A stretch of 42,729 nt of DNA from Escherichia phage Alux-21 (PQ589898.1); one strand, 5' to 3'; positions 12,101-12,425 are shown, numbered from the stretch's first letter. Program-made: numbers and translations. Notes: generated by a model not told the origin, from the sequence alone.

Positions 12101-12425
12101 GGTGACAAAAGTTGGTCACCTTGTCACCTAGTTGGTCACCTAGTTGGTCACCACTTAAACCACTGATATGACTATATAAATGACTAAAGGTGACTAAGGG
12201 TGACAAGGATTTATAAAGTTTAGATTGGGGTAAATACAGACGATAGATATAGCCTATCAATAGTGCGCACAGAGGGTAGAATTACATTAATATAGGAAAT
12301 TGTTGTCACCTTAGTCACCAGAACGCCAAAAACGCGCACTTTCTCTTTATAAATCAAGATGATTGACGGGTGACAAGCGGGTGACCAACTCTTTGCCACC
12401 TTGTCACCCTTTTCTGGTCACCGTT
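12101..12425. repeat. iteron-like repeat array (GGTCACC / TGTCACC heptamers in both orientations); candidate replication origin or operator array
   Basis: About 13 copies of (G/T)GTCACC or its complement GGTGAC(A/C) in 325 bp, including three tandem AGTTGGTCACC units at 12110-12152; AT-rich spacer 12153-12300; resembles P4 type I iterons (TGTTCACC). Confidence 0.6.

Follow-up and report, generated by a model that had tools for sequence, protein, structure and literature searches.

The stretch of DNA analysed here (the window) comprises 42,729 nucleotides of Escherichia phage Alux-21 (PQ589898.1). Between the gene for a primase-helicase and that for a late transcriptional activator it carries an intergenic array of short repeats (iterons) built on the hexamer GTCACC. 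The array lies directly behind a terminator and directly 5' of the activator gene, 1.95 kb past the end of the primase gene (10150) and on the same strand, with accessory open reading frames (ORFs) in between; a preliminary description made from the sequence alone had placed it in the same setting. We regard the array as probably the iteron-type replication origin of this phage, a Jilinvirus, read by the wing of a winged helix at the C-terminus of the primase-helicase. The elements of the locus are the following (coordinates of the window).

7841-10150, plus strand: primase-helicase of 769 aa, the proposed initiator (Pfam, PHROG primase/helicase families), with PriCT_2 at aa 16-86, Toprim_3 at aa 235-336, a VapE-like ATPase at aa 462-680 and a predicted winged helix at about aa 684-751
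9821-10150, plus strand: predicted C-terminal winged-helix domain (aa 661-769), with a predicted recognition helix at aa 722-736 and a wing hairpin at aa 741-751
10067-10087, plus strand: wing-tip codons (aa 743-749, TKNGRFF), co-varying with the iteron hexamer in the primase alignment
12074-12099, plus strand: Rho-independent terminator at the end of the early/replication operon, directly 5' of the array (7-bp stem with five GC pairs, T-run)
12101-12152: left outer iteron cluster, one minus-strand unit (12101-12108) followed by four plus-strand units
12113-12120, 12121-12128, 12133-12140 and 12145-12152, plus strand: the left outer plus-strand units, with start-to-start spacings of 8, 12 and 12 bp
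12189-12206, minus strand: inner-left iteron pair TAGTCACC and TTGTCACC, 10 bp apart, mirroring 12297-12319 (inverted repeats I3 and I6)
12207-12302: AT-rich spacer of about 100 bp with about 35% GC (GC measurement), the proposed DNA-unwinding element
12303-12319, plus strand: inner-right iteron pair TTGTCACC and TAGTCACC, 9 bp apart, mirror of the inner-left pair (I3, I6)
12369-12387, minus strand: right-hand inverted iteron pair TTGTCACC and TGGTCACC, 11 bp apart (inverted repeats I5 and I8)
12392-12422, plus strand: right outer iterons, a degenerate TTGCCACC (12392-12399), TTGTCACC (12401-12408) and TGGTCACC (12415-12422)
12415-12443, plus strand: weak sigma-70-like promoter match TGGTCA-17-TACAAT for the activator gene (9/12 matches)
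12482-12916, plus strand: gene of the late transcriptional activator, the neighbour of the array (PHROG 836, E 1.3e-30)

Between 12101 and 12422 (322 bp) an exact motif count finds 13 copies of GTCACC or its complement GGTGAC, eight on the plus strand (starts at 12115, 12123, 12135, 12147, 12305, 12314, 12403 and 12417) and five on the minus strand (12101, 12189, 12199, 12369 and 12380), in agreement with the roughly 13 copies, packed in both orientations, of the preliminary description. The heptamer (G/T)GTCACC given there covers 11 of these units, but the other two read AGTCACC. Since a T stands two bases 5' of the hexamer in 13 of 13 cases, the repeat unit is the 8-mer T-N-GTCACC. Three copies of AGTTGGTCACC (at 12110, 12130 and 12142) had been called tandem, which is correct for the latter two only (12-bp period); the first is split from them by one TTGTCACC unit. 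Degenerate extra members are the one-mismatch TTGCCACC at 12392-12399 and two TAGTCAT copies (12169-12187) just upstream of the inner-left pair, and a short AT-rich stretch separates this pair from the left outer cluster. The overall layout is a dyad: left of the AT-rich centre stand an outer cluster and an inverted pair, and to its right the mirror image of that pair, one more pair and the outermost pair. The AT-rich middle noticed earlier is evident from a GC content of 0.35 over 12140-12299, compared with 0.54 for the whole window.

The array is real and highly non-random. Elsewhere in the window GTCACC reaches at most 3 copies per 325-bp stretch, as against 13 in the array region, and the Poisson tail for at least 13 copies is about 2e-15 at a background of 0.43 per 325 bp (rate taken from the rest of the window). 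By motif count, no second cluster of the array motif was found in the 42.7-kb window. Window-wide, 69 copies were found against 20 expected from dinucleotide shuffles, an approximately 3-fold excess, and the 13-unit cluster stands far above this raised background. A reading of the excess as dispersed binding sites was rejected: the related phage ECO1230-10 (L007) shows the same excess, with 54 copies genome-wide, despite having no GTCACC array, and the excess therefore appears to be compositional or codon-related.

Over the array region the window is 88-93% identical to the Jilinvirus (subfamily Iiscvirinae) phages HeidiAbel/Bas97, Salmonella phage PT1, ECOO78, ep3 and ECO1230-10, and by its sequence it is itself a phage of this genus. 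A megablast search of 11500-13000 against complete E. coli genomes gave no match, and sequenced chromosomes of E. coli do not appear to harbour the array. The related Jilinvirus records examined carry no annotation of a replication origin, and no earlier description of an origin was found for this phage group. The BASEL collection paper, in the portions available, describes the genus as poorly characterised, and those portions contain no mention of an origin.

The terminator sequence ccgccttcgggcggtttttt is kept in Bas97, PT1, ECOO78, ep3 and ECO1230-10. All 13 units are retained in Bas97, PT1 and ECOO78, and eight are found in ep3, where the sequence around them is largely different. The homologous intergenic site of ECO1230-10 contains no GTCACC at all; nine T-N-GTCCCA units stand there in the same layout. 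As an observation apart, GTCCCA is very rare in genomes of the GTCACC class (1-4 copies in each of three compared). Relatives of both motif classes keep the AT-rich centre, but its sequence differs in ep3 and ECO1230-10, and the core '< < AT-rich > >' (arrowheads give the orientation of the units) is present in 16 related loci from both main motif classes. In genome-wide tblastn comparisons with the window, the primase is 83% identical in ECO1230-10, 98% in ep3 and 99% in ECOO78; the corresponding values, in the same order, are 91%, 95% and 90% for the late activator, 98%, 97% and 97% for the small terminase TerS, and 96%, 98% and 97% for a ParB-like protein. Among these four proteins, only the primase appears to track the motif swap.

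The argument from co-variation rests on a wider set of loci, not on Jilinvirus alone. Scanning IMG/VR with the activator protein yielded 62 loci, in which hexamers were counted de novo in the 650 bp upstream of the activator and over the whole loci. The GTCACC class comprises the window, L008-L010, L013, L021, L023, L024 and L040, and the GTCCCA class L007, L011, L012, L020, L029, L032, L036, L042, L044, L070 and, weakly, L016, L019 and L025; further repeat classes in other loci are GTCACT, GGTTAC, TACACT, GTACCC and TAGTCA. Wherever the C-terminus of a VapE-type primase was recovered, across about 25 related loci, the repeat goes along with a short stretch of that protein. All GTCACC loci but L040 have T-K-(N/A)-G-R-F at window residues 743-748, and all GTCCCA loci have (S/T)-G-S-x-R-(L/V/Y)-F.

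Alignment columns were called discriminating if their residues never overlap between the two hexamer classes. In the primase alignment (892 columns; 7 loci vs 11) only residues 744, 745, 746 and 748 discriminate perfectly, together with a single column of the gappy tail. None was found in the activator (8 loci vs 14), in the two small proteins of the early region, a helix-turn-helix (HTH) protein and a DUF7696 protein (6 vs 11 each), or in TerS and TerL (6 vs 10 each). The ParB-like protein gave two scattered columns in an underpowered test (4 loci vs 5). A resolvase (6168-6638), flagged in the four-genome comparison (80% vs 97% and 99%), was dropped as it has no discriminating column in the wider set (5 vs 7). 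When the ATPase domains are arranged in a neighbour-joining tree, the GTCACC and GTCCCA classes come out interleaved, with at least three sister pairs differing in class (window clade vs L007/L011/L012; L024 vs L029; L021/L023 vs L032). Wing and iterons have therefore switched together repeatedly; the class difference is not a single inherited one and points to at least three independent switches. With lineages of clearly distinct primases counted by hand, the TKxGR wing is found in 6 of 7 GTCACC lineages and 0 of 8 GTCCCA lineages (one-sided Fisher 7/5005 = 0.0014), and the (S/T)GSxR wing in 8 of 8 GTCCCA lineages and 0 of 7 GTCACC lineages (probability 1/6435), both probabilities ignoring relatedness among lineages. 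Because the repeat co-varies with residues 744-748 and not with the tested neighbours, we take the primase-helicase to be the binder, whose C-terminal domain would recognise the iterons sequence-specifically.

The preliminary description had called this protein P4-alpha-like. The label fits only its Toprim domain and overall design, and the protein is no member of the P4 alpha family; the ATPase is VapE-like (VapE-like_dom in Pfam, E 2e-51), and the nearest characterised relative found is Rep of the Staphylococcus aureus pathogenicity island SaPI1. The sole match to a solved structure was 7pds_A (phmmer, E 1.6e-18), which is SaPI1 Rep bound to DNA (PMC9371898). About 90 residues at the C-terminus have no Pfam assignment. 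AlphaFold2, run on aa 661-769 with an alignment of 45 sequences, gave a model with a mean predicted local distance difference test score (pLDDT) of 78.6, and of 83-90 over the core blocks. Its topology is helix-helix-strand-helix-helix-strand-strand, and the domain is thus predicted to be a winged helix, in which residues 744-748 occupy the wing tip, spanning the turn of the hairpin and the first part of the last strand. Fold matches of the model, all of them weak, are winged-helix DNA binders including the SaPI1 Rep-DNA structure 7pds; the C-terminal domain of P4 alpha did not appear among the fold matches listed.

The pairing of wing and hexamer was used for blind predictions. From 120 primase homologues in the protein database, test proteins were picked by wing sequence alone and their contigs fetched afterwards; a full-length primase query was needed for this search, as the C-terminal 129 aa alone returned 3 fragments only. 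P0114 (53% identical, wing TKAGRFY) belongs to locus L072, which carries ten GTCACC units in 5819-6114, located 580 bp past the primase stop codon, behind a terminator and with the dyad layout of the window; in the 3.2 kb of contig downstream of the array no homologue of the activator was detected. P0110 from a Cupriavidus prophage (wing SGSRRLF) belongs to locus L073, with eight GTCCCA units at 11247-11449. Both predictions of the hexamer class were correct (2/2).

A second IMG/VR scan, with a primase alignment, gave 80 loci with VapE-type primases (L079-L158). They contain 40 strong hexamer clusters, 33 of the 40 downstream of the primase gene and 14 less than 500 bp from the primase stop codon; in L098, L099, L104, L107, L121 and L143 the cluster starts at the stop codon itself. 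In these loci the distance between primase and array varies between lineages. Further pairs of wing and repeat were observed. A third wing class, RRTA(S/T)(S/K)RLF, pairs with TGGTCA in L074, L075 and L082, whose arrays are built on TGGTCA/GTCAC cores, and the contigs L076 and L077 end before any array; (K/R)(K/R)SNG(K/R) pairs with TACCCT or TACACT (L014, L015, L055, L085 and a marine group at about 35% identity), and RRTSKGRFY with GGTGTCA (L089). GTCACT repeats accompany three different wings (L031, L033, L096). In many loci with such other pairs the array starts at the primase stop codon.

Iteron origins of this kind are already known, from Rep and ori of the SaPIs and, by design, from alpha and ori-crr of P4. 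SaPI Rep proteins are self-loading helicases of the superfamily 3 (SF3) type, whose C-terminal winged helix recognises penta- or hexanucleotide iterons (PMC9371898). The SaPI ori comprises six to twelve iterons downstream of rep, with at least two iterons in opposite orientation on each side of an AT-rich centre, and PriRep5, the fused primase-Rep of SaPI5, loses ori binding without its C-terminal domain (PMC9371898). The window resembles this system in the homology of its VapE-like ATPase to SaPI1 Rep (the 7pds_A match above), in a PriRep5-like fusion of primase, SF3-type ATPase and predicted C-terminal winged helix, in the repeat number (13 units), dyad and AT-rich centre of its array, and in the position of the array downstream of the initiator gene on the same strand. 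It differs in the 1.95 kb between primase gene and array, whereas the SaPI ori is adjacent to rep. That the C-terminal domain sets origin specificity is an experimental result in SaPIs, whereas for the window co-variation suggests it.

With P4 alpha the window protein shares the combination of primase, ATPase and C-terminal DNA-binding domain in one polypeptide of about 770 aa, but homology is confined to the Toprim region (32% over 206 aa, BLASTP E 2e-18); the other domains of alpha are Zn_Ribbon_Prim, D5_N, DUF5906 and Pox_D5, in contrast to PriCT_2 and the VapE-like domain of the window protein. The P4 iteron TGTTCACC and the window unit TTGTCACC have TCACC in common, but the window repeat is not a P4 type I iteron, and while P4 depends on ori and crr, two elements set apart from each other and bound by alpha, there is a single cluster in the window. 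In P4 (L078, 4291-4590) crr is built from TGTTCACC and follows directly after the alpha terminator. In the direction of alpha, its 120-bp unit reads '< > > .. AT-rich .. < <', as does the left half of the window array (12101-12206), a resemblance and not family membership.

Between related phages of the lambda family, a change in initiator specificity goes with a change in iteron sequence. Short iterons bound by a phage initiator would be common to lambdoid phages and the window, but the lambda iterons lie inside the initiator gene and host DnaB is recruited via the P protein, whereas the window array is intergenic and its putative initiator has an ATPase and a primase of its own. A possible lambda-like arrangement was seen in L048-L054, which have the activator gene and no VapE-type primase: about 3.3 kb ahead of the activator gene, an HTH_36 gene contains GGAACAGT repeats. 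In L049 about eight GGAACAGT repeats are located at 4490-4650 inside a 261-aa HTH_36 gene with an adjoining DUF6475 gene. The arrangement suggests an initiator in the style of lambda O whose gene contains the origin.

The alternative already named in the preliminary description, an operator for the adjacent activator, would mean that the array is bound by this protein or by another small early regulator, e.g. the HTH protein encoded at 7368-7601, and controls transcription of the activator gene. We consider this very improbable. The activator, which had been termed Mor-like, has no match to the Mor family (PF08765) and only a sub-threshold HTH in Pfam, and falls into PHROG 836 instead. It does have an HTH at its C-terminus, its gene follows directly on the array, and the last iteron (12415-12422) supplies the -35 hexamer of the sigma-70-like match, but neither the activator nor the small HTH protein nor the DUF7696 protein has a discriminating column, and the activator is 90% identical in ECOO78, with the same motif, and 91% in ECO1230-10, with the swapped one. 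The two elements also occur apart: L048-L054 keep the activator gene with no enriched repeat upstream of it, and L072 has the array with no detectable activator homologue in the 3.2 kb of its contig that follow. None of the late operons in the window is preceded by a further cluster, and no promoter match was found at the homologous place in ECO1230-10. Even less credit is given by us to a parS-like centromere or a packaging-recognition array. ParB-type proteins and small terminases bind repeat arrays, and the phage encodes an HTH_ParB protein (39192-40067). Across ECO1230-10, ep3 and ECOO78, however, this protein is 96-98% and TerS 97-98% identical whatever the motif class, TerS has no discriminating column, and the arrays of distant relatives are found behind the primase gene.

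A different matter is whether the array holds sites of the primase-helicase without being the place of initiation, i.e. whether it consists of crr-like or control iterons that titrate or handcuff the initiator or gate transcription of the activator. Co-variation tells only what binds and not what binding does, the last iteron overlaps a promoter-like site, and P4 has such a second element, with a similar '< > > .. AT .. < <' unit, right after its alpha terminator. We nevertheless judge it unlikely: the array is the sole cluster of the motif in the 42.7-kb window, which leaves no separate candidate for an ori, the overlap with the promoter is not conserved in the GTCCCA class, and a dyad with an AT-rich centre is the arrangement of SaPI origins, where melting occurs (PMC9371898). 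An origin with sites for the C-terminal domain of the primase, as first suggested in the preliminary description, is in turn supported by the co-variation, the two blind predictions and the family-wide position of the arrays.

Several points weigh against the origin and its recognition by the primase wing. The array is not adjacent to the primase gene as it is in SaPIs, and the phage also encodes a DnaB-like helicase, according to the RefSeq annotation of its relatives. GC skew offers no independent signal of an origin; at 12.2 kb there is none, and the skew follows the direction of transcription, with a switch near 3.7 kb. L040 has a KKVGT-VF wing despite its GTCACC repeats (as CGTCACC), and the consensus of the third wing class is less clean. 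The ECO1230-10 primase, 83% identical, is diverged along most of its length, so that within Jilinvirus alone one co-inherited recombination block could explain its link with the repeat. In the literature on Jilinvirus we found no experiments on binding, melting or origin activity.

Some further features of the region and the phage were recorded. An element g(c/g)TACAAT(t/c)(g/c)CCCCA lies about 40 nt 5' of the activator start codon (window 12436-12481; L074, about 12670-12717; L075, about 12510-12550) and is conserved from Jilinvirus to relatives at about 50% protein identity; a sigma-70-like -35 hexamer beside it was seen in the window's class only, and the element may be a promoter needing an activator. 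No Rfam family matched over 11700-12700 at E <= 1. Small minus-strand ORFs inside the array (12072-12260 and 12220-12399) were dismissed as spurious, with matches only in the near-identical ECOO78 DNA. The gap that separates the primase operon from the array is an insertion hot spot of small genes, filled in Jilinvirus by variable accessory ORFs: at 11839-12048 the window has an extra 69-aa ORF (phrog_10509) that is absent from Bas97, PT1 and ECOO78, and in ep3 (L002, 6331-6760) the first terminator is separated from the array by another insert, which brings a terminator of its own. A tyrosine integrase (Phage_integrase and Arm-DNA-bind_3) is encoded at 41163-42374 on the plus strand, with no tblastn match in ep3, ECOO78 and ECO1230-10. 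It fits a remark, in the accessible portions of the BASEL paper, that some Jilinviruses retain a seemingly intact lysogeny module. In the tail-fibre region (25000-29000) GC falls to 0.46-0.49, compared with 0.54 overall, and identity to the relatives drops too; a host-range module subject to horizontal exchange is the probable explanation.

By analogy with SaPI Rep, initiation at the array might proceed as follows. The 769-aa primase-helicase would bind the T-N-GTCACC units via its C-terminal winged-helix domain, with the wing tip (aa 743-749, TKNGRFF) reading the variable part of the hexamer. Protein assemblies would load on each side at the opposed iteron pairs (12189-12206, minus strand; 12303-12319, plus strand), which flank about 100 bp of AT-rich DNA and have more iterons outside them, and would melt the AT-rich centre. 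They would then thread as hexameric helicases of the VapE type (SF3-like), and the Toprim primase domain would make the first primers for the host polymerase. Binding, melting, helicase loading, priming and origin activity are all proposed here from sequence comparison and from what is known of related systems.

Two more far-reaching readings are put forward together, and jointly we hold them to be tentative and rather doubtful: that the wing tip is an origin recognition code, and that the outermost iteron couples late transcription to replication. The five residues of the wing tip may be a simple and portable code, in which TKxGRF reads GTCACC and SGSxR(L/V)F reads GTCCCA, with the further pairs described above. 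Wing tip and iterons would have switched together time and again among phages that are otherwise near-identical, and this switching could make replication private to each phage during co-infection. As the outermost iteron is at the same time the -35 hexamer of the candidate promoter of the late activator, its occupancy by the initiator could, in the window's class, couple the onset of late transcription to the initiation of replication; this coupling is speculative because the sigma-70 overlap was not found in ECO1230-10.

Our analysis offers a poorly characterised genus a precise and testable candidate origin (12.10-12.42 kb) together with a named initiator domain. Since the co-variation of wing and iteron is found again in several lineages and gave the right answer for two unseen loci, it provides what appears to be a natural specificity-swap series for self-loading helicases of the VapE type. 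It may be useful for guiding wing swaps, for annotating origins in phages and prophages with such primases and for designing orthogonal replicons. The finding would bring a group of Gram-negative myoviruses under the SaPI/P4 paradigm and does not constitute a new kind of system.

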